From IMG/VR virus record IMGVR_UViG_3300027886_000012: a stretch of DNA of 30,130 nucleotides. One strand, given 5' to 3'. Source of the stretch: a virus. The notes under the pieces were generated by a model. The model had not been told where the DNA came from. It saw only the letters and a program-made list of their open reading frames with translations, and did not search any database. Made by a program: the position numbers and the translations under genes. Positions 15,147 through 30,130 of this stretch are shown in pieces; position 1 is the stretch's first letter; every line of letters starts with the position of its first letter.

Positions 15147-17738
15147 TTGGAACTATATACTAGAGATATGTTAATTAATATTGATATAGAAGATAGTTCC
15201 ATGGTTAGAGAAGACGCTGGAACTACCGAAGGCAGAGAAGTTATCCAGACTGAAGAGCAACGACTTGATGCAGAATTCTTTCTTAAACAACTTGTCAAAG
15301 AGCCAAATATTCCTATTGAAACGTTAGCAAGTGAGATAGACCCACCTATACCCGTAAAGACGGCTGAAGGTATACTTGAGGACTGTGCAAAATTACTGGT
15401 AGGAACTGTTAAAGACGCTGATTATCCTGAACGTGTTAGAAGTTTTTATAATAATGGCGCTAATCCTGAAGACCAGCTTACGCCACAGGATATGATGACT
15501 TTGCTTGATGTCGTGGCCAACAAGTATCATTCGAAATTAATGACAAAGAAACATGCTGATAGAGTAGGCGCCAAAATGAGAAAAATGGGATTACCTACAA
15601 CTAGAGAACCCTCAGAAGAAGCTATGCAAGAAGTGCCCCCTAACTCTGGTGTAATACCCCCTGCTCCTACTCCAGTGACAGCTTCAGGACAGCCTTTTCC
15701 ACCTCAAACTACAGCATCAGGACAGCCATCTAATACTGTATGGGTAGCCACAGATAATCGAGCGTCGGTTCCCTATACTCCGCCACAACCACAACAATCA
15801 GGACCTCAAGCACAGCAAATATACGAAAATGAAGACTCTTTGATGAAATTCCTACTTGAAGTAAATCATGCCATAAATCCACAGCAATTATCAAAGATAC
15901 CCTACTTTATGATGATGTTCAGAACTACTAAATGGCAGTGGATGAAAAACCCATCGAAATTACTTATGTTTCTAAAGAGTACTTTCGGTCCTGTGCCTGG
16001 CGAAACAATATACGTTCAGTTTATGGATATGAAGTCTCAGGTATCATCCGACCCTCAGAATCTATATAGGTTAACTGGAGCGTCTGAATATACCCCGTTA
16101 AATCCAGTAGAAAACCTCATGCCCAATATGGGTGGAATGAACCCAATGCAGGGTATGATGAACATGATGAATGAGTCACAAGAAGGTTACGATGGATATG
16201 AAAGTGCTCGCGAAAGACGGATGGACAGACTCATGGAACGCATGCTCAAAGCCAAATATATGACTATAATGGAGCAAATGGGTACAAACCAGAACGCCAA
16301 TGGTAACAATCAAAATCAGTTCTTTAATCCCTATGAATATGATGTCTTTGAAGACTACGATAAAGACGGCCGAGTAATCGCCAAGCGATATGTAAGAAAG
16401 CTCAATCCCTACGGTCAACCAATGACGAACGGTGAAAACAATGGAGGTGGTATGACTCAGACAATGCTCGAACTATTCAAACTAATGCACGGCCAGAGTC
16501 AAGCACAAAACAACCTCTTACTGGAGAAGGTGTTAACCAATAGCAGTGGAAGTAATAACGGTATCAATGACCTGTTACAGACGGTTCTAAAGCAGACCAT
16601 GGGAGCTATTACCCAGCAAACCGACCCGTTAGCACAGTTCAATAGAACACTTGACTTGGGTGAGCGTATATACCAGATAAGAAACCAGAATCAGCGTCCA
16701 CAGTCAATAGAAGAAAAGAAGCTCGAGCTTGACTTCTTATTGGCCAAAAAGGAGTTAGAATCAGCCGAAGGTAAGGAGCAAAGAGAATGGACACGACAGC
16801 AACAAGAGTCAGAGAATGCTAATAGAAATGTTGACACCGTAATAAAAGAAGTAGGTGGCGCTGTTAAAGAAATAGCTGGACCAATACTTAACACAGTTGC
16901 GGCCGCCTATGGTAGAGGGTTAGCTGGAACGGGTGGTGCACCTCAGATGGACCCAAGAATGCAGAGACCGCCGCAACCTCAACAGGTAATCATACAGCAA
17001 CAACCACAGCCACAAGGTCAACCATCAACAATATCAGAGATGATGGCCGAAGAAGATAGAAGGGCAGAAGCAAGCAGACGTGCAGAAGAAGAATACAGGG
17101 CAAGACAGAATATGCCACAAGGTCAACCACAGCAAGAATACATAGACAACCGACCCGTTGAAGAACAATTGAAAGATTATGATGATGACCAGTTAGATGA
17201 AATGGCTTACCGTGGTGAAGTCACATTACAAGAACATGAACGTATATTTAATCAGGTAATGAAAGAGCGTGCAAGAAGAAAAGGTATGGGAGTTCCAGTG
17301 CCACAGAGAAAATACATAAGTCCTGTGGTTAATGAAATAGCCCAGCACGAACAACAAAGGTATGCACAGCAACCGACCCCAGAGTCAATCGAGTCAAAAT
17401 ATGATGTATTTGCCCCAGAAGAGCAAGATGTTAACATGAGTGAACCAAAGCCATCAGCACTCGACACATCAATACCAGATGATGAACGTATCTCAATGAG
17501 CACACAGGAACGAGAAGCAATGCAGTTATCTGGTGAAATTGAAACACGTAGAGAGGGTTCAAGCTTCGGTACACCAGCAACCGAGAATATAGCACCAGAA
17601 GCCAGAGACGATGTGGAAGAACAACTAGAGGAAGTACATGAAGAATCTCAACCTGAGCCAGAAAAAGCCGTGGTTGAAGTAATCGAAGACGAAGCTATCG
17701 AAGAACCAGTATACGAAGAAGTAGTCGACGAATCATAG
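15147..17738 (+). CDS. Large low-complexity protein (P/Q/N/M-rich, coiled coil, acidic tail); real start may be ATG 15200
   Basis: 863-codon ORF; TASGQP and PQGQP repeats; E/D-rich C-terminus. Confidence 0.85.
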   Translation: MELYTRDMLINIDIEDSSMVREDAGTTEGREVIQTEEQRLDAEFFLKQLVKEPNIPIETLASEIDPPIPVKTAEGILEDCAKLLVGTVKDADYPERVRSFYNNGANPEDQLTPQDMMTLLDVVANKYHSKLMTKKHADRVGAKMRKMGLPTTREPSEEAMQEVPPNSGVIPPAPTPVTASGQPFPPQTTASGQPSNTVWVATDNRASVPYTPPQPQQSGPQAQQIYENEDSLMKFLLEVNHAINPQQLSKIPYFMMMFRTTKWQWMKNPSKLLMFLKSTFGPVPGETIYVQFMDMKSQVSSDPQNLYRLTGASEYTPLNPVENLMPNMGGMNPMQGMMNMMNESQEGYDGYESARERRMDRLMERMLKAKYMTIMEQMGTNQNANGNNQNQFFNPYEYDVFEDYDKDGRVIAKRYVRKLNPYGQPMTNGENNGGGMTQTMLELFKLMHGQSQAQNNLLLEKVLTNSSGSNNGINDLLQTVLKQTMGAITQQTDPLAQFNRTLDLGERIYQIRNQNQRPQSIEEKKLELDFLLAKKELESAEGKEQREWTRQQQESENANRNVDTVIKEVGGAVKEIAGPILNTVAAAYGRGLAGTGGAPQMDPRMQRPPQPQQVIIQQQPQPQGQPSTISEMMAEEDRRAEASRRAEEEYRARQNMPQGQPQQEYIDNRPVEEQLKDYDDDQLDEMAYRGEVTLQEHERIFNQVMKERARRKGMGVPVPQRKYISPVVNEIAQHEQQRYAQQPTPESIESKYDVFAPEEQDVNMSEPKPSALDTSIPDDERISMSTQEREAMQLSGEIETRREGSSFGTPATENIAPEARDDVEEQLEEVHEESQPEPEKAVVEVIEDEAIEEPVYEEVVDES

Positions 17739-18125
17739 TAAGTGCGGTCGTTCTATCTCTCCGTTCATATAGCACCTGAATATCAAGTCACTTGACTTTG
17801 ATATGTTTATTACCTTATGAAAGTCACCTTTATCGACAAAAACAAAGTCACCAGCTTTCACAAATAAAGAGAGCTTTCTTACAATCATGATTCCCTGACC
17901 TTCGACAAACTCGTATACTTCTGTCTCATTTCCGTGCATATGCCCTGAAGTCTGCATTGCTGGATGTAAAACTGTGACACTGACGGTAAATACGATACGA
18001 CCCTTTGTATTTTGTATATTCAAGTCAGTTATCTGATAGGTCTTGTCATTTCTCTTTAGTTTAGCTTCATCAAATGTGAATACCCTAGGGTCTGGGTTAA
18101 TCTTCTTTTGAACGGGCACGGACAT
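17733..18125 (-). CDS. Cupin-domain protein (possible sugar isomerase)
   Basis: GHMHGNETEVYEFVEGQG and GDFVFVDKGDFHKVIN cupin motifs. Confidence 0.85.
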   Translation of the reverse strand: MSVPVQKKINPDPRVFTFDEAKLKRNDKTYQITDLNIQNTKGRIVFTVSVTVLHPAMQTSGHMHGNETEVYEFVEGQGIMIVRKLSLFVKAGDFVFVDKGDFHKVINISKSSDLIFRCYMNGEIERPHLL

Positions 18126-18204
18126 ATAGTTACAGTAAAGTTTTCTATAAAAAAAGGTAATGTTAATGATATGTTTTTTAATTCTATCTTAATCTCATAG
18201 AACT

Positions 18205-19368
18205 ATGTCCGATAACACTGGGAAGACAGTATTACTTGTAGGTGCAGGGTTCCTTGGCAAGTTCTTTTTATCCGAATGGCTCGGTAATCCCTATAACAAG
18301 CTAATAGTGATGGATAAGCAAAGAAAGGGAGACTTCTTTGGCCATCCTCTTTTACAAAACTATGAGAAAGACGATAGGATAACATATGTCTGGGGTTCAT
18401 CAGGTGACCCGCAACAGTTAGAGAAATTCTTTAAAGAAGACAAGATAGACCATATTGTCTATACTGCGGCCATTGCTGACGTGCCATATGCAAGAACAAA
18501 CCCTAGAGATACACAGATAACAAATATTGACAATCTGGGTATATTTCTCAACTACATCGGCGACCAGCATTTTACAGGTAAAATTGTGCTAATGAGCTCT
18601 GAATCAGTATATGCCAAAAAGCCAGAAGGCACACCAGAAGAAGATATCCCGTTTAAAGAAACCGACTCGACTGAAGGACATTCTATATACGGTAAGAGCA
18701 AGCTTGGACAGGAAGAACAGGTGCATTTGGCCGAAAAGAAGTACGAGTTCCTTAATGCCACAATCATAAGAAGTGCTACCATGTATGGCATGTTTGCCCG
18801 TGCCGAACAGGTTATTCCTACTTTCATAAGACAGGTACTGACAAAAGAGCAGATAACGTTATTCGGCGATGGTAAGCAAACATCACGAGACTTTATTCAT
18901 GTAACAGATACGGTTAACGGTATTATAGCGATTCTAAACGCTAATGACTCTGTAACAAGTGGACAGACATTTAATATAGCCTCTGGACGCGAAACATTCC
19001 TTCTAAATCTGGCCAATGCGATTAAAACACTTGTAGGACAGCCCACAGAAGCATTTGACGCAAAGAAAGGAATTCCAGCAAGTGGATTTGTGCCGATAAA
19101 GTTCTTAGACTTTCTGCCTGGCGAAAAAGGCGCGCGTATGGTTCTGAATATTGAAAAAGCCAAAAAGAATCTAAAGATGATAGACCATGGTAAGGAAGTT
19201 GCGTGGGAACCGCAGGTAGACCTGATAAACGGCCTGCGAAGTACAATATTCTGGACTTGTAGTGTAATAGGCTATGATGAACAACAGATGGAAGAAGTAG
19301 AGCGCGTAATATACCCTGAGCACTTTAAAGGACGTTCAGAAACAAATCCGCTTGGCAATAGAGCGTAG
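18205..19368 (+). CDS. NAD-dependent nucleotide-sugar epimerase/dehydratase (extended SDR)
   Basis: VLLVGAGFLG, YTAAIADV, SSESVY, YGKSK, TMYG, RDFIHVTD, FNIASG. Confidence 0.9.
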   Translation: MSDNTGKTVLLVGAGFLGKFFLSEWLGNPYNKLIVMDKQRKGDFFGHPLLQNYEKDDRITYVWGSSGDPQQLEKFFKEDKIDHIVYTAAIADVPYARTNPRDTQITNIDNLGIFLNYIGDQHFTGKIVLMSSESVYAKKPEGTPEEDIPFKETDSTEGHSIYGKSKLGQEEQVHLAEKKYEFLNATIIRSATMYGMFARAEQVIPTFIRQVLTKEQITLFGDGKQTSRDFIHVTDTVNGIIAILNANDSVTSGQTFNIASGRETFLLNLANAIKTLVGQPTEAFDAKKGIPASGFVPIKFLDFLPGEKGARMVLNIEKAKKNLKMIDHGKEVAWEPQVDLINGLRSTIFWTCSVIGYDEQQMEEVERVIYPEHFKGRSETNPLGNRA

Positions 19369-19377
19369 GTAACGTCT

Positions 19378-20208
19378 ATGGCGTGGGAATTCCGTGGCTA
19401 CAGAAATCCAGATGAAACTGATATTGTTATCTGTATTCCACATACTGGGAATGTAAGATTTGACTGGGCTTTATCGTACAAACATTTGGATATGCCACCA
19501 AATCATCATTTTATCTCCAGTGGAAATCAAGGTCAGCCAATACATATAGCAAGGAATATCTTTGTGACGCAAGCCTTACAGAGAAAAGCAAAGTACATTT
19601 TCTTCTTGGACTCTGACGTGGAAATGCCACATGATGGACTCGTAAGGTTACAGCAATCAAAAAAACCTATCATAGCTGGTATCTATTCTACAAGAAGTCC
19701 GCCGTACGGACTATCGGCCAATATTAACAGAAGACCATTAATGCCAGATATCCTAGAGAAATATCCAGACAGAAATATTGATGTTCATGAGATAGGTATG
19801 GGATGCGCTCTTATCGATATGAGAGTTATAGAGCGAATAGCACGGGATTTAAAACTACAGTGGTATTGTATGAAGCCACATGGTAAGGAATTAGGATTAA
19901 AGACAGAGAACCAAACAACGCCAAAGGAAATAATGGTATATACCAACGACGAAGCAGTAAATCAACAATGGCACTGTAAAATCTGCAATTCATCGATTAT
20001 AGCCGACTTTTTCAAATATACTGTAGGCACTGGCCTATCGGCAATAGAAGGCGCATATTCTGAGGACTATTATTTTTGCCATCTTGCCAAAAAGGTTGGC
20101 TTTCCTATTTTCATTCACACAGGTGTATTCTGTACTCACGAGTTATCGAACATGAAGATTACCAGAGAAGGACTGGTTAATCCAGTAGCGAGTGCGATGG
20201 AGATATGA
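19378..20208 (+). CDS. GT-A fold glycosyltransferase (family 2-like)
   Basis: VICIP, IARN, FFLDSD (DxD), GMGCALI, SEDYYFC. Confidence 0.8.
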   Translation: MAWEFRGYRNPDETDIVICIPHTGNVRFDWALSYKHLDMPPNHHFISSGNQGQPIHIARNIFVTQALQRKAKYIFFLDSDVEMPHDGLVRLQQSKKPIIAGIYSTRSPPYGLSANINRRPLMPDILEKYPDRNIDVHEIGMGCALIDMRVIERIARDLKLQWYCMKPHGKELGLKTENQTTPKEIMVYTNDEAVNQQWHCKICNSSIIADFFKYTVGTGLSAIEGAYSEDYYFCHLAKKVGFPIFIHTGVFCTHELSNMKITREGLVNPVASAMEI

Positions 20209-20399
20209 GTTTTTCAATAGATGAACCAGAAAAGAAACTACTAACAGAGTTAGAACACTGGCTAGACAAAAGGCGGTACAAGTACGTGGAGCGCTGGAAT
20301 TTCAATCAGGATGACTTGGTAAACGAAGCAAAACTAGCTGAGGATGTTGCAATTCTAAGTAAAATTGACAAGTTGAGAAGGGAGTTTAGGATAAAATGA
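20205..20399 (+). CDS. Hypothetical protein, 64 aa
   Basis: ATGA overlaps at both ends within the glycosylation operon. Confidence 0.65.
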   Translation: MSFSIDEPEKKLLTELEHWLDKRRYKYVERWNFNQDDLVNEAKLAEDVAILSKIDKLRREFRIK

Positions 20400-21553
20400 A
20401 AATCTGTATTATATCAAGTTCTGCAATTCCAGCATTTCCAGACCCGAACTTATATAGCGGACTTGAAGTGGTCGTTTCTAATCTGGCGGCCGAACTTGCT
20501 AAAAGAAAACATCAGGTATATCTTATTTCATCGAAAGGAACAACGATGCCTGGCACTTGGGAATATGAAGACGAAGCTACAAAAGAAAAACTCGGAACAC
20601 TCGAAGTAAGAGAAACAGTTGACTCAACATGGGATGGCATGGGAGAGATAAATCATTTCATTGCATACAAAGACTGGGTTATAGAAAACTTCGGCGATGG
20701 TGACGGAATAGTATTAGATTCTACATGGCAGATGTTTGGTTACTTGCTGGTCAGTGGATATGATGATAAAATACTTAGTGGAAAACTAACGGTTAAACCA
20801 AATCCGAAAATGAAGATATTACACTTACATCATGGCGTACCTAACGCGACTTCAAAGCCACCAGTAAAATGGCCACGCATGTTAGGACTGTCAAAAACAC
20901 ATGCTTTGTGGCTATCATCAATAATGAGAACTCCAGCACGCTATCAATGGAACGGAATTCCATTACCCGATATAAAACCAGAAGAGATAGTGGATGATGG
21001 ATATTTCCTATCACTAAACAGAATCACAGAAGAAAAGGGTATACATGACTCAATTGATGTGGCCGTCCAAAACAACATGCCGATAATAGTAGCAGGTGAC
21101 GATATTCATGTCAGCAGTCAGGATTATGTTTCACAGATATTAGAGCAATGTCGTAATTCTGGCGGACTTGCAAAATACGTCGGTTCAATTGACAATCATA
21201 CAAAGGCTGATTTACTAAGACGCTGTCATGCGGTTATATCATGTCCTGTTAATCAGGGGCCAAGAGCATGGATAGAAGGATTTGGACTCAATGTAGTTGA
21301 AGGATTATCATACTACAAGCCGTTTATCGGCACTGCTAACGGTGGACATCTGGACATTATAGAACATGGTAAACAGGGGTTCTTGGGTATGACACCTGCC
21401 GAAGTAGCCACATTTGTGCCGAAAATCGGCGAAATAGACCCAAATGAATGCAGAAAACGGGTAGAGGCTGAGTTCACGATAGAGCGTATGGGTGAACGGT
21501 ATGAAACAATGTTTCAAAAAATTGCAAATGACGACTTAGATTCACGCTGGTAG
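20396..21553 (+). CDS. GT-B glycosyltransferase (family 4)
   Basis: YSGLEVVVSNLAAELAKRKHQV; LNRITEEKG; EGFGLNVVE; GGHLDIIEHG. Confidence 0.9.
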   Translation: MKICIISSSAIPAFPDPNLYSGLEVVVSNLAAELAKRKHQVYLISSKGTTMPGTWEYEDEATKEKLGTLEVRETVDSTWDGMGEINHFIAYKDWVIENFGDGDGIVLDSTWQMFGYLLVSGYDDKILSGKLTVKPNPKMKILHLHHGVPNATSKPPVKWPRMLGLSKTHALWLSSIMRTPARYQWNGIPLPDIKPEEIVDDGYFLSLNRITEEKGIHDSIDVAVQNNMPIIVAGDDIHVSSQDYVSQILEQCRNSGGLAKYVGSIDNHTKADLLRRCHAVISCPVNQGPRAWIEGFGLNVVEGLSYYKPFIGTANGGHLDIIEHGKQGFLGMTPAEVATFVPKIGEIDPNECRKRVEAEFTIERMGERYETMFQKIANDDLDSRW

Positions 21554-24584: not shown

Positions 24585-25745
24585 TTACGGCTTTGGTAGT
24601 ATAGCTATTCCTGCATCAACTGCTACAGTTACGTTTGCACTTTGGTTCTGGTTTGCTGGTGCGAATATCGCTGTGCCATTTCCTACTGGTACACTGAATG
24701 TTTGATTAACTGTTGTTGGCCCACAGTCTTCATCAATTAGACCATCCAAGTCGTCATCTATGTCATTACCACATATTTCTACTGGTGGAGGTGGCGGAGG
24801 TGGACAGTTTTCATCTATCTGACCGTTTCCATTATCATCTATTCCGTTACCACATACTTCATTTGCTGGCGGTGGAATTGGAGCAGTTATCTCAAAGCTG
24901 TATTGCTTTGATTTAGCATCAGTGTAAATATCTGCTTTAATGTGTTTCTTTGTCATATCTAGTGTGAGAATCATAAAGCCGTTTACGCTATCATTTCCGA
25001 ACAATAGAGGATAAGTCTTGAATGAATTACCATCTATTTCATAGAGATTGCTTCCTTCGTCATGATGTCCTCTACCGCTTATAGTGTAATATACGCCGTC
25101 AATTTTGAAAACCTGTTCGTTGTGGTTATGTGCCTGCAGTACCATTGATACATTGTTCTTTGCAATTATTGGATGATATGTCTCAAAGAATCCATTAGCT
25201 CCATGTTCTGACCTTGCAGTTACAAAAGGCTGATGAATTATTACGAATTTATACATGGCTTTTGAGGTTTCAGCCCAAGTCTTGAATGCCTTGTATTGGT
25301 TTGAAGTTGTGCTTAAACTAGTATCTCCTTGAAGTAAGAATGCTTCTATCTTACCATTAAAGAATGATTTTACACCCCAACAGTTAGACATTTTCATAAA
25401 GTTCTTTGTTGTATCACATGAATCGTGATTTCCATCGGCAATTGCACTGTTATTAGCCTTAAAACCCCGTGCTGTTAAATCGTTAAGAACACATGAAGCG
25501 CCGTTATATGCATAGTCTCCAGGAACGAAAAACAATTGAATCAAAAATGATTTCATAGCGTTATACTGTGTAGTTTGTTTCGGTCTGTCAGTCTTACAAT
25601 CAATATCGCCGACTACGCCGATTACAACTTTCGATGGTACCTGCTGTGCATTAATATTTTGATTTTGTAGAGCGAAAGTACCTACTGATAAAATTAAAGT
25701 TACTGCCATGAATGTCGTTAAGAGAATCATTCTATCGTGATTCAT
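24585..25745 (-). CDS. Secreted/anchored calcineurin-like metallophosphoesterase with two C-terminal Asp/Cys metal-binding repeats
   Basis: N-terminal hydrophobic signal; GDID, PGDYAY, GNHD, HQP, AHNH; EVCGNGIDDNGNGQIDENC and EICGNDIDDDLDGLIDEDC with poly-Pro linkers. Confidence 0.85.
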   Translation of the reverse strand: MNHDRMILLTTFMAVTLILSVGTFALQNQNINAQQVPSKVVIGVVGDIDCKTDRPKQTTQYNAMKSFLIQLFFVPGDYAYNGASCVLNDLTARGFKANNSAIADGNHDSCDTTKNFMKMSNCWGVKSFFNGKIEAFLLQGDTSLSTTSNQYKAFKTWAETSKAMYKFVIIHQPFVTARSEHGANGFFETYHPIIAKNNVSMVLQAHNHNEQVFKIDGVYYTISGRGHHDEGSNLYEIDGNSFKTYPLLFGNDSVNGFMILTLDMTKKHIKADIYTDAKSKQYSFEITAPIPPPANEVCGNGIDDNGNGQIDENCPPPPPPPVEICGNDIDDDLDGLIDEDCGPTTVNQTFSVPVGNGTAIFAPANQNQSANVTVAVDAGIAILPKP

Positions 25746-25811
25746 TATATTATACTAAAATGTCCTCACTAAAAAAGTATAAGGTAAAATATCAGTAAGA
25801 ATGTTCTATAT

Positions 25812-27530
25812 ATGATGGCCACAACGCTTGACTATGAAGATAAAAACATTATTGGAAATGCTAGCTGGAAGGTATTACACGCATATTCAAAACAATACCC
25901 AGAGAATCCAGCTCAAGCGGATAAGAAAGAGTTCCATACACTATTGAAGTCAGTATTAAGAACAATACCAGACGATGATTGTAAATGTCGAACTCATGCC
26001 GTAAATTATATTCAAAAATACCCGCCAAAGATAGCCAATAGAGATGACTTGGTACAATGGGTCTGTTCATTTCATAATGACGTTAATAGAAGGTTAGGAA
26101 AACATGAATTTGACTGCAAGATTCTCTTTGAAAAGAAGCCGTGTAAGACATGTAAACCAACACAAGTAATTCAGGATAAAGACGCCCAGTTGAAAACCGT
26201 TATGGGTGATTATAAATCACTATCAATAAAAGTCTTCGAAGAAATATGTAAGAGGGAAGCTCTTCCTACGCCTACAATAGTTTTTGCGCCGTGTCCTACC
26301 GCCACTCATACATCATGTACAACTATGGTCGTAAATAAAAACACACAGGATGTTAACCTAAAACAAAAACCAGTAGTATACATCAATCCATCTAATTTTG
26401 GCTTACGCGTACTTGGTCACGAAGCATTCCATTATATCAAAAAAATGAAGAATGAAAATCATCTGGCCATCGACGAAGACGAAATTGAAAAGCTCACACA
26501 AGAGATTATTACAAAATATTTCCCTGCCGATACTTACGATAAAAACACGAAACAACTGATTCAACCAATGGTGATGAAAGATAGTCTACTAGTAGCAAAG
26601 CAAGAAAAGCCCACAGTTGAACCTATGCATAATTTCGAAAAGAGCTTTAACACCAAGAACTTTAGACGCAGATATAGAGAAGCAATTCCAGAAACATTTC
26701 CAATGTACAGCAAATTCAGACAAAAACATGGTAATAATATCGGCGATGAACCTGACGAAGAAGGCACTCATGATGATACAAGTGTTCCTAGAGGCGGAAT
26801 ACTATCTTATTTTGACGGAATATTCGAACCATTTGCAAAATTATTACACATCCCTGCGCGAGAAGTTAACATAGCAAATACACCTAACATATTTTCAGGT
26901 GGTGTAAATGTTTTCATAAATGGCAATATGAGTCCATTTGGTTCGGTAGTAACTACAACATTACTGGGTCTGGGTTTGTTTACAGCAATTGCAATTAACA
27001 AAGAAGGAATTGGTTTTGAAGACAGACGTCTGTTAACAGAATTGGGTGGATTATTCCTATGGTCAGGATTAGCACATGTAAATGATAAAACCGTACAACA
27101 AGATGCACGAACAGCGGGTAGTGCACTTGCAGTGATGGACTTTGATACTGTAAAACAATTGATGGGTAAACAAAGCATGGTGACTCAGGCAGAAGCTGGA
27201 ATACAAGCACGACAGCAACAAAGAAGTAGCATAGGTGCTGGTAGAAGCAGTGGAGGTACAGTAGGTGGTATTGGCCGTGCAGTTGCACAAAGACAGTTAG
27301 AAAAAGACGCTGGTGTGAGTACAAGACCAGAAGGTGGCGGAATATACAAAAACTTTGGCAGTGGCGCAGGTGTAGCAACACCAAGAAATAGTGGTACTGG
27401 TGGAGTAGGATTTAGTTATTCTCCAATAATTGATAACATTGGATTATCGCCAGAAGAAAAAGAATTGTTAGAGAGTCAGGGTTCACCCACTGAATCTCTG
27501 TATTACGGTGATGCAGAAGATTTAGTCTAA
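25812..27530 (+). CDS. Erv1/ALR FAD sulfhydryl oxidase domain + zincin (HExxH) domain + membrane/Gly-rich C-terminus
   Basis: GNASWKVLH, PDDDCKCRTH, WVCSFHNDVNRRLGKHEFDC; CKTC; VLGHEAFH; two hydrophobic segments; Gly-rich tail. Confidence 0.8.
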   Translation: MMATTLDYEDKNIIGNASWKVLHAYSKQYPENPAQADKKEFHTLLKSVLRTIPDDDCKCRTHAVNYIQKYPPKIANRDDLVQWVCSFHNDVNRRLGKHEFDCKILFEKKPCKTCKPTQVIQDKDAQLKTVMGDYKSLSIKVFEEICKREALPTPTIVFAPCPTATHTSCTTMVVNKNTQDVNLKQKPVVYINPSNFGLRVLGHEAFHYIKKMKNENHLAIDEDEIEKLTQEIITKYFPADTYDKNTKQLIQPMVMKDSLLVAKQEKPTVEPMHNFEKSFNTKNFRRRYREAIPETFPMYSKFRQKHGNNIGDEPDEEGTHDDTSVPRGGILSYFDGIFEPFAKLLHIPAREVNIANTPNIFSGGVNVFINGNMSPFGSVVTTTLLGLGLFTAIAINKEGIGFEDRRLLTELGGLFLWSGLAHVNDKTVQQDARTAGSALAVMDFDTVKQLMGKQSMVTQAEAGIQARQQQRSSIGAGRSSGGTVGGIGRAVAQRQLEKDAGVSTRPEGGGIYKNFGSGAGVATPRNSGTGGVGFSYSPIIDNIGLSPEEKELLESQGSPTESLYYGDAEDLV

Positions 27531-27937
27531 TAATCTCCTGTGGCACACTTTTGTATCTCGTAGTCGGCTAGGTGTTCGTCTCCATCATCATCTGGGAGTT
27601 CAAATCTATCTTTTAGACAATCTTGGACGTTTTCAGTTGTTCCGAGATATACAGTGGTTTCTTTAAAGTCAGACCAGTCATCTACAGAACCCGTTACTTC
27701 CATATGGTCTATTGCTTCTGCTAACTTACAGATTCCTACTGAATCATCATTTAGCATTTTTTTGAATTTCTTTTCAGATGGGTCGTTGTCTCCATGAGAT
27801 TCTGACCCCCACTTCTCTACACCTGTTATGTCTTCACATCTTTCTGCATTTGCAGTGTTACTATTACCTGCTACTAGTAATATACTAGTCATTAGTATAG
27901 ACAATGCAATTACCTTCATAGTTGATTTCATAAACAT
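27527..27937 (-). CDS. Secreted acidic protein with four Cys
   Basis: Signal peptide MKVIALSILMTSILLVAG...ANA; D/E-rich mature part. Confidence 0.75.
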   Translation of the reverse strand: MFMKSTMKVIALSILMTSILLVAGNSNTANAERCEDITGVEKWGSESHGDNDPSEKKFKKMLNDDSVGICKLAEAIDHMEVTGSVDDWSDFKETTVYLGTTENVQDCLKDRFELPDDDGDEHLADYEIQKCATGDY

Positions 27938-29572: not shown

Positions 29573-30130
29573 TCACGGAATATCAGCACCTGAATTGTAC
29601 AGCTCTGCCAGCTCTTCATATTTTCTAGCATAATCGTCTACACTAAATTTATTCTCTGGTTTTAGTTCAGAATAAGAATCAAAGTGTTCTACCGTGCGTT
29701 TGAGTGAATAATATCCGTCAATATAGATAGCGTCTTTATTTTCTATCCATAATTCTCGAGTACTTGGTGAATCTGTGATAATAAGTGGGGTTCCTACAGC
29801 GCAAGCAATTCCATTAAGCACTCCCCATCCTTCTATGTAGTTTGGGTAATCAAATGGTGAAAGAAACGCGGTTGCACCTCTTACTAATTCTCTGAGATAT
29901 TCATGATGTTGTGGATTTAGTGGAATATCTACAAATTGCAGATTGTTAAGACCAAGCCCCGCTCTTTTAGCTTCGATTAATGACCTCTGATGTTCTGCTA
30001 TTGTCGCGTTACCAGCAATGACTATTTTTTTATCTGGCAATTCTTTTGCCAGTCTGATTATCTTATCTATACCCTTATCCTTTGTGGGTCTGTGTAAAAA
30101 TAAGAAATATTCTTTTGGGCTTAGGTTATA
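29573..30130 (-). CDS. GT-B glycosyltransferase (family 4), C-terminal part; gene runs off the window
   Basis: Frame open to the window end (YFLFLHRPTKDKGIDKII...); EGWG and GTPLIITD motifs. Confidence 0.8.
   Translation of the reverse strand, partial: YNLSPKEYFLFLHRPTKDKGIDKIIRLAKELPDKKIVIAGNATIAEHQRSLIEAKRAGLGLNNLQFVDIPLNPQHHEYLRELVRGATAFLSPFDYPNYIEGWGVLNGIACAVGTPLIITDSPSTRELWIENKDAIYIDGYYSLKRTVEHFDSYSELKPENKFSVDDYARKYEELAELYNSGADIP

Follow-up and report, generated by a model that had tools for sequence, protein, structure and literature searches.

A virus-encoded Erv-zincin fusion protein with a CxC redox site, probably from an archaeal virus of soil

Sulfhydryl oxidases of the Erv/ALR family are textbook eukaryotic enzymes, which large eukaryotic DNA viruses have borrowed to form disulfides in the reducing cytoplasm. 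Members are defined by a core of about 100 amino acids (aa) that binds flavin adenine dinucleotide (FAD), in which a CXXC pair lies beside the flavin, together with a structural disulfide of the CX16C type and a distal shuttle pair that varies, being a CXC at the C terminus of Erv2 and a CX4C in AtErv1 (PMC4019985). Here we describe a gene on the IMG/VR virus record IMGVR_UViG_3300027886_000012, a stretch of 30,130 nucleotides (nt) that is referred to below as the window and whose DNA is contained in three soil-metagenome runs, from which it may have come. In the list of open reading frames (ORFs) of the window, the ORF at 25812 to 27530 (+) encodes a 572-aa protein, P0001, which is most likely a three-module protein of an uncultivated soil virus with an archaeal host. 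The full-length homologues first found show 37 to 64% identity, and the wider family counts at least 114 clusters. An initial annotation of this DNA had proposed a fusion of an Erv oxidase, a zincin protease, and a membrane domain. The ORF and every motif listed there were found at the residues given, and the three modules stood, with the membrane domain reduced to one hydrophobic helix in a compact bundle. The explanation of the whole that we favor, and that we hold to be somewhat better than evenly balanced, is that an archaeal virus encodes an oxidase joined to a tethered gluzincin-type protease and a hydrophobic anchor.

By sequence, the first module (aa ~10 to 114) is a homologue of the Erv/ALR FAD-dependent sulfhydryl oxidases. 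The FAD-binding core covers aa ~10 to 108 (25839..26135, +). A hidden Markov model (HMM) search with PF04777 (Evr1_Alr), which the initial annotation had suggested, gave a significant Pfam match over aa 17 to 107, with an E value of 2.2e-22 and 79.7 bits against a gathering cutoff of 27.6. Using phmmer against PDB sequences, we recovered Erv2, AtErv1, Erv1, ALR, and pB119L of African swine fever virus (ASFV) at E values of 5e-15 to 3e-9, the first four falling between 5e-15 and 1e-11, and a profile of the family matched ALR and Erv1 chains at 1e-29. A first full-length AlphaFold2 (AF2) model, built on a 13-sequence alignment, was poor (predicted local distance difference test score, pLDDT, of 48). 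Only its Erv part was usable, with pLDDT values of ~66 to 82 over most residues. When this part was compared with 2hj3, 1jr8, 3w4y, and 3gwl in Foldseek, the probability was 1.00 and the target-normalised template-modeling (TM) scores were 0.68 to 0.83, with a root mean square deviation (rmsd) of 1.6 to 3.5 over ~95 to 100 residues. The Pfam, PDB sequence, and fold matches thus bear out the Erv/ALR assignment.

The residues of the FAD signature lie in two stretches, S18-W-K-V-L-H23 and W83-V-C85-S-F-H-N-D-V-N-R-R-L-G-K97...F-D-C102, and align to the same residues in Erv2 and AtErv1. W19, H23, H88, N89, N92, and K97 each reach at least 90% conservation in the clade to which P0001 belongs (the CxC clade, below). 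Across 68 family members, N89 never varies and W19 again reaches at least 90%. C85 and C102 (26064..26117, +) are 17 residues apart, forming a Cx16C pair that aligns to the structural cysteines of Erv2 and AtErv1. The C111-K-T-C114 motif (26142..26153, +) is a candidate shuttle disulfide, as judged from the alignment to Erv2 and from conservation in the family. Both of its cysteines are at least 90% conserved in the same 68 members, and most family members have a CxxC 8 to 13 residues past the structural cysteine. C111 aligns with the first cysteine at the C-terminal end of the Erv2 match, a region that we take to be the CGC shuttle of Erv2. The module would bind FAD and oxidize thiols.

The proximal redox site differs from that of described enzymes. 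In place of CxxC, P0001 carries a CxC pair, D56-C57-K58-C59, inside the segment P53-D-D-D-C57-K-C59-R-T-H62 (25968..25997, +), and the distance from the proline to the histidine is two residues longer than in the canonical P-C-x-x-C-x-x-H. P0001 therefore lacks the CXXC proximal to FAD that is listed for ERV/ALR proteins (PMC4019985). In a 68-sequence alignment, C59 occupies a near-invariant cysteine column that holds the second cysteine of CxxC in the relatives. The motif [DE]-C-x-C-x-x-H was present in all 12 of the full-length homologues first found (37 to 64% identity), which came from ENA, Logan, and JGI assemblies, and the cysteine pair with its preceding acidic residue is kept in 14 distinct sequences, down to 36% identity. 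The initial annotation had noted CxC in place of CxxC, had left room for a sequencing artefact, and was right about the substitution. Because the motif is conserved in distinct homologues from independent assemblies, an artefact can be set aside, and CxC is, as far as these alignments tell, a conserved lineage trait.

The spacing of the redox pair varies across the family. Among 81 distinct Erv-bearing members, 46 have CxxC, 17 have CxxxC (mostly C-x-D-P-C), 14 have CxC, and 4 lack the pair. A tree of 74 full-length members was computed with FastTree and Shimodaira-Hasegawa-like (SH-like) support values. In this tree, 13 CxC rows, the window copy included, form one clade with a support of 99 that is nested among CxxC and CxxxC clades, and the fourteenth CxC member (P0023) was placed in a neighboring clade. 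In the low-confidence first model, residues 52 to 58 are coil and a helix begins at residue 59, an arrangement that would suit a CxC at a helix N-cap. The alignment makes C59 the likely flavin-proximal cysteine, and the exchange cysteine would then have moved from position i-3 to position i-2. Separately, we observed that three family members (P0029, P0038, and P0042) have lost the first active-site cysteine (P-F-D-x-C) or the whole pair and have kept HExxH; the oxidase site seems dispensable in some lineages.

It is conceivable, and in our view unlikely, that in the CxC clade the Erv domain has ceased to act as a disulfide-generating oxidase. It would then be a degenerate flavin-binding or scaffold domain, or its CxC and C111xxC114 would together bind a metal or an Fe-S cluster, and P0001 would serve mainly as a membrane-tethered protease or a structural protein. 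CxC motifs are metal or Fe-S binders in other proteins, and the missing CxxC, the drift in spacing, and the loss of the pair in four members all fit this idea. However, the FAD-signature residues and the shuttle CxxC are all kept, which is unexpected for a dead domain. The persistence of both cysteines and the acidic residue in the 14 sequences also argues against it, as does the location of C59 in the flavin-proximal cysteine column.

The second module, aa ~125 to 240 (26184..26531, +), has the predicted structure of a zincin. An AF2 model of aa 116 to 460, built on a 79-sequence alignment, had a mean pLDDT of 85, with values mostly between 88 and 98 over both of its folded parts. In P0001 numbering, the modeled zincin domain consists of a helix (125 to 148), three strands (155 to 157, 169 to 171, and 188 to 190), and two further helices (198 to 212 and 222 to 236). 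The HEAFH motif at aa 203 to 207 (26418..26432, +) lies on helix 198 to 212, the predicted active-site helix. E222 (26475..26477, +), 15 residues after H207, begins the last helix and is, from its conservation and its position in the model, a candidate third metal ligand. A zincin fold with a backing helix, a three-strand sheet, an active-site helix, and a glutamate helix is the minigluzincin layout.

The putative active site of this domain is strongly conserved. In a family alignment of 76 to 79 sequences with an overall column identity of ~11%, H203 is conserved in 75 of 76 sequences, E204 in 76 of 76, Y208 in 68 of 76, and E222 in 74 of 79, and H207 is conserved in 70 of 76 and is a glutamate in the other 6. 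Two cysteines between strands 1 and 2, C161 and C169 (26292..26318, +; C-P-x4-T-S-C), are just as constant (75 and 76 of 76, respectively) and may serve as a disulfide, a metal site, or a switch.

Structural comparison led to the same family of folds. In a wide VIA-align search, the domain matched SPRTN (6mdx) with a Z score of 6.9 (96 aa; rmsd, 4.3), jannalysin (4jix) with 6.0, an M32 carboxypeptidase with 5.8, YbeY with 5.5, and the effector VgrG2b with 5.4. VIA-align on the top chains from Foldseek gave selecase (4qhj) with a Z score of 6.1 (rmsd, 3.2; 84 aa), abylysin and the HtpX domain (3cqb) with 5.5 each, and IrrE/PprI with 4.8. Foldseek itself placed jannalysin, abylysin, and selecase at the top in the PDB, with E values of 0.3 to 3, and SprT-like and IrrE-like phage proteins in BFVD, with E values of ~0.1 to 0.4. 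A structure search of the ESM Atlas returned SprT-like, M48, YgjP-like, and Zn_peptidase_2 neighbors. Every structural neighbor of aa 125 to 240 is a zincin, at middling Z scores. With the near-invariant HExxH and downstream glutamate and the confident model, the zincin domain named in the initial annotation stands, and this region very probably has a zincin fold of the minigluzincin type. The arrangement seen in integral-membrane metalloproteases of the M48 and M56 families (HtpX, Ste24, and BlaR1), with the zincin between transmembrane helices, was not found in P0001. No hydrophobic segment precedes the zincin domain, and the sole strongly hydrophobic helix (aa 377 to 395) lies ~135 residues past it.

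The initial annotation had gone further and called this module a protease. We regard an active protease as fairly likely, and its activity is not guaranteed across the CxC clade, in which 6 of 14 members have HExxE. These six sequences, the lack of any peptidase HMM match, and the middling Z scores would also be explained if the domain were a relic of the zincin fold that no longer cleaves proteins and instead, for instance, binds clients, with or without a metal, and hands them to the oxidase. We judge this to be rather improbable. H203, E204 (the catalytic base), and E222 are nearly invariant despite the low column identity, a change from histidine to glutamate still leaves a metal ligand, and the window copy has the full HEAFH.

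The C-terminal half of P0001 comprises a linker, a helical bundle, and a tail. The linker (aa ~250 to 328; 26559..26795, +) is poorly conserved, gappy in the alignment, and partly predicted to be disordered, with pLDDT values below 50 at model residues 145 to 165 and 196 to 209; it contains a conserved F296-P297. A conserved six-helix bundle follows at aa 330 to 451 (26799..27164, +), where the AF2 model reaches pLDDT values of 93 to 98 and D335, N353, T357-P358, G377, D404-R405, and W417 are conserved positions. Many family matches cover this module alone. VIA-align returned only generic helical-bundle matches and no specific structural relative of the bundle. Matches to RseP/S2P (Z scores of 7.4 and 6.0) were rejected as generic helical-bundle similarity.

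Within the bundle, the transmembrane-type helix at aa 377 to 395 (26940..26996, +) has a Kyte-Doolittle value of 1.8 in the window copy, 1.3 to 2.1 in all 16 homologues checked, and a family mean of 1.64; helix 407 to 423 is mildly hydrophobic (0.76). The tail (aa 455 to 572; 27174..27527, +) is rich in glycine and glutamine and has pLDDT values below 50 in the first AF2 model. It nevertheless carries the motifs QQR, F-K-N-F, and G-F-x-Y-x-P and an acidic C terminus, and in the close clade R467, Q470, R471, R494, E507, F515, F534, Y536, and P538 are invariant. The short conserved motifs are of a docking type. The hydrophobic helix and the disordered glycine-rich tail described in the initial annotation are therefore both present.

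Helix 377 to 395 is the probable membrane tie of the protein; possible alternatives are a hairpin and a soluble bundle in which the hydrophobic helix is buried. No signal peptide, Tat motif, or transmembrane segment was found before the Erv domain in ~80 family members, and the lack of a signal peptide or preceding transmembrane segment argues that the enzymes are made and kept in the cytoplasm. The charge distribution points the other way. Lysine plus arginine averages 0.4 per 15 residues before the helix and 2.7 after it, and in 78 of 79 members the stretch after the helix holds more of them than the stretch before it. For a helix that crosses the membrane a single time, the positive-inside rule and this bias would place the N-terminal side outside.

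The genes on either side of the fusion gene bear on the question of an external location. Upstream and divergent (24585-25745, -) is a gene for a signal-bearing metallophosphatase-like protein, a homologue of which stands in the same divergent position in the related loci L003 and L005. Downstream and convergent (27527-27937, -) is a gene whose small product (136 aa) has a signal segment and 4 cysteines. This gene overlaps the fusion gene by 4 bp (27527-27530), and among the relatives only the closest one, L005, keeps it (46% identity). As the initial annotation had stated, each of these two proteins has an N-terminal hydrophobic, signal-like segment and several cysteines. More distant contigs do not keep these neighbors and have PAPS reductase or other genes instead. 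The C-terminal repeats of the metallophosphatase-like protein consist of two acidic C-G-N-x-I-D-D...D-E-x-C units joined by seven prolines, and they gave weak matches to MopE and to an acidic double-disulfide repeat.

The oxidase and protease could be imagined beyond the cytoplasmic membrane, or on the external side of a virion envelope, acting on secreted or surface proteins such as the two flanking proteins or the host S-layer. The positive-inside bias and the retention of the metallophosphatase gene in L003 and L005 and of the 4-cysteine gene in L005 would fit. We find this doubtful, however, since no member has a signal peptide, Tat motif, or preceding transmembrane segment, since unsignalled transfer of a 376-residue, flavin-loaded N-terminal part would presumably be unusual, and since the neighbors are not conserved in the more distant contigs. 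The suggestion in the initial annotation that the flanking secreted proteins are substrates of the oxidase has no support; no link was found, and no signal peptide precedes Erv in any member.

The fusion protein belongs to a sizeable family. A profile of the non-Erv part only (A2), built from the window and five loci, was searched against 1.84 billion cluster representatives and matched 114 proteins at E values of 0.001 or less, 42 of them below 1e-30. The family therefore comprises at least 114 metagenomic clusters at 50% identity. An Erv domain was detected by HMM in 83 of 125 family proteins; the others include many that are evidently fragmentary. The gene was not seen in two pattern-based scans that covered 185,579 prokaryote species with one genome apiece, which leaves absence unproven; the idea that this is a common cellular protein, which the initial annotation had entertained, finds no support in them. 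A tblastn search of INPHARED phages gave no match to the fusion protein, and the only IMG/VR match to the Erv domain was an Erv of a giant-virus metagenome-assembled genome (MAG) with a canonical C-G-K-C site. For the non-Erv part, Pfam gave only sub-threshold matches to DUF956 and Peptidase_A24, PHROGs and NCBIfam gave none, a PDB profile search returned only Erv chains, and the Atlas feature search reached at best 0.75 to 0.76. In the full-text literature, we found no paper that describes this family, and none that deals with a CxC proximal site, an Erv-protease fusion, or Erv proteins of viruses that infect archaea or other prokaryotes.

A distant branch of the family was also seen. The contigs of L009 and L010 (P0136) encode a member with CxxC and HEWYH, are ~45.6 to 45.9 kb long, recur in 44 blocks of the collection, and probably represent a complete, widespread viral genome. 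Also encoded on them are Hjc, PCNA, a protein of 1375 aa that contains a sedolisin pro-domain, and, much as in the window, an epimerase-glycosyltransferase pair. A family member of the L010 type occurs in the NCBI assembly GCA_037025305.1.

The genes around the fusion gene point to an archaeal virus. The PCNA of the window matched the NCBIfam archaeal sliding clamp at 2e-41 versus 6e-25 for the eukaryotic model, and its best PDB matches were of the Pyrococcus/Thermococcus type (1e-26 to 1e-24), with eukaryotic clamps at ~1e-13. In the phage collection, it matched haloarchaeal viruses only. The window also encodes a small AAA+ ATPase, a Cas4-like nuclease, a J-domain protein, and two DNA methyltransferases. 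DUF3892 and DUF4314 proteins and an overlapping two-subunit C5 methyltransferase are part of its gene content, and its small, densely packed genes resemble those of prokaryotes. Homologues of the fusion gene were located on contigs of 45 to 99 kb filled with small ORFans, with occasional genes for PAPS reductase, ribonucleotide reductase, HNH, a LysW-type zinc ribbon, Hjc, and PCNA, the last two occurring together on a related contig type of ~45.7 kb. Given the archaeal-type PCNA, the Cas4-like nuclease, and the ORFan-rich 45- to 99-kb contigs, we assign the window to an archaeal virus with good confidence. An archaeal virus was also the origin given in the initial annotation, and the PCNA type, the restriction of PCNA matches to haloarchaeal viruses, and Hjc on a related contig make it likely.

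An Erv gene would be less unexpected if the element were a bacteriophage or a small virus that infects a soil eukaryote. Erv is a core gene of large eukaryotic DNA viruses, the IMG/VR match came from a giant-virus MAG, and no capsid, portal, or terminase gene was found in PHROGs searches of the large ORFs neighboring the fusion gene in L002 and L003 or in an Atlas search of an 863-aa ORF of the window. The window holds no tRNA, and no host link through CRISPR spacers or integration sites was found. Such an element nonetheless appears improbable to us, because its PCNA is archaeal-type by both models and PDB matches, the phage-collection matches are haloarchaeal only, Hjc is present on a related contig, and the genes, the Cas4-like one included, are small, dense, and prokaryote-like.

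Taken together as an oxidase with a tethered protease and a membrane anchor, the modules suggest a mechanism. Electrons would pass from client thiols to C111/C114, then to C57/C59, to FAD, and finally to O2. As in the cases of poxvirus E10R and ASFV pB119L, from which we argue by analogy, disulfides would be made de novo at a membrane on which viral proteins undergo maturation. The tethered zincin may trim the same clients, or it may be controlled through its conserved cysteines. We infer that self-cleavage and maturation of virion proteins, which the initial annotation had in mind, are possible outcomes.

Control through the cysteines can be put more precisely. The minigluzincin-like protease Wss1 is under the control of a cysteine switch (PMC4559962), and because of this precedent, a redox-gated protease is a concrete and testable idea. 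The O2-dependent Erv shuttle would oxidize or reduce C161/C169 and so switch proteolysis according to redox, oxygen state, or assembly step. We put this forward only as a speculative possibility. It is equally speculative that the CxC/CxxC/CxxxC series would tune the redox potential of the switch across virus lineages.

Several points weigh against the combined reading of P0001 as an oxidase, a protease, and an anchor. With regard to the oxidase, the canonical CxxC that is listed as defining for ERV/ALR enzymes (PMC4019985) is absent from P0001, no characterised Erv enzyme with a CxC proximal pair was found in the searchable literature, so that activity is assumed, and the four family members without the first cysteine suggest that constraint on the site has in places relaxed or is changing. 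No thioredoxin- or glutaredoxin-type match was found among the ORFs of the window, which is part of a genome and whose small ORFans are unclassifiable. With regard to the protease, the middle domain has no peptidase match in Pfam, NCBIfam, or PHROG and no zincin in the PDB profile search, its structural Z scores of 5.5 to 6.9 lie in the middling range of VIA-align, and HExxE replaces HExxH in 6 of the 14 CxC-clade members (the window copy keeps HEAFH). The topology evidence conflicts, with no signal peptide on one side and positive charge after the helix in 78 of 79 members on the other. Finally, no virion hallmark gene was identified, and the designation as a virus rests on gene content.

Other features of the region are described here for completeness. 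Two antisense ORFs lie inside the fusion gene, at 26807-27178 (-) and 26995-27384 (-), encoding 123 and 129 aa. BLAST matched one of them to the strand opposite the fusion-gene homologues of L002 and L003. Both are most simply understood as frame shadows cast by coding sequence that is conserved and of biased composition. At 25771-25784, ~30 nt before the ATG, there is an A-rich G-T-A-T-A-A element, and no clear ribosome-binding spacing was seen. Such an element would be consistent with an archaeal TATA box serving an mRNA that has a short leader or none. A promoter and terminator scan of the gene region, sigma-70 included, was at chance level, and no RNA data set is listed as carrying the fusion gene.

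A glycan-synthesis block at 17733-21553 consists of a cupin gene (17733-18125, -) and genes for an NAD-dependent sugar epimerase/dehydratase (18205-19368), an Anp1-like protein (19378-20208), and a GT4 glycosyltransferase (20396-21553); a GT1-family gene lies at the right end of the window (29573-30130). The virus probably glycosylates its own or host surface components. In six related contexts, a gene for a retropepsin-like aspartic protease (Asp_protease_2 / gag-asp_proteas, mostly weak matches) was seen 1 to 3 kb downstream of the fusion gene: L002 (14161-14625), L003 (13454-13933), L004 (3748-4182), L008 (8424-9035), and the contigs of P0010 and P0043. It may be a conserved maturation module. 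No such counterpart was seen in the window, which ends 2.6 kb past the fusion gene.

The fusion protein thus belongs to an enzyme family that is already known, but its catalytic motif is altered and its domain architecture and host range are new. If the host reading is true, virus-encoded disulfide formation extends to archaeal hosts. An oxidase and a protease-like domain in one chain constitute a new architecture, and the CxC/CxxC/CxxxC series on one orthologous scaffold offers a natural experiment on cysteine spacing in Erv chemistry. The gene marks an uncharacterised group of ORFan-rich soil viruses of 45 to 99 kb. It also bears on the origin of the Erv genes of eukaryotes and giant viruses, a question for which the direction of transfer cannot be inferred here.

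How P0001 compares with described systems can be stated module by module. Like Erv2 (1JR8), AtErv1 (2HJ3), Erv1 (3W4Y and 4E0H), and ALR (3O55), it has a homologous FAD core of ~100 aa, with 30 to 33% identity, a Cx16C pair, the W/H and H-N-x-x-N residues, and the lysine. As in Erv2 and AtErv1, the shuttle cysteine pair is directly C-terminal of the core. Unlike the single-domain ERV/ALR proteins, it has a CxC with a longer span from proline to histidine, a fused zincin, a hydrophobic bundle, a disordered tail, and a probable archaeal virus as its source. In its zincin part, it resembles the minigluzincins 4QHJ, 4JIX, and 4JIU, SPRTN (6MDX), HtpX/M48, and IrrE in the predicted backing helix, three strands, HExxH helix, and glutamate helix. 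It differs from these domains in having no detectable sequence similarity to them, an invariant cysteine pair before strand 2, oxidase and bundle flanks, and an HExxE subclade.

The Erv oxidases of large eukaryotic DNA viruses offer a further comparison. Vaccinia virus E10R works with the separate partners A2.5L and G4L. Like ASFV pB119L (3GWL), mimivirus R596 (3GWN and 3TD7), vaccinia virus E10R, and baculovirus P33, P0001 is a virus-encoded Erv that is probably membrane associated, and pB119L matches it directly (sequence E value, 3e-9; target-normalised TM score, 0.76). The likely shared role is the formation of disulfides for viral proteins in a reducing host cytoplasm. In contrast to P0001, the eukaryotic-virus enzymes keep CxxC, none is fused to a protease, and their hosts are eukaryotes.

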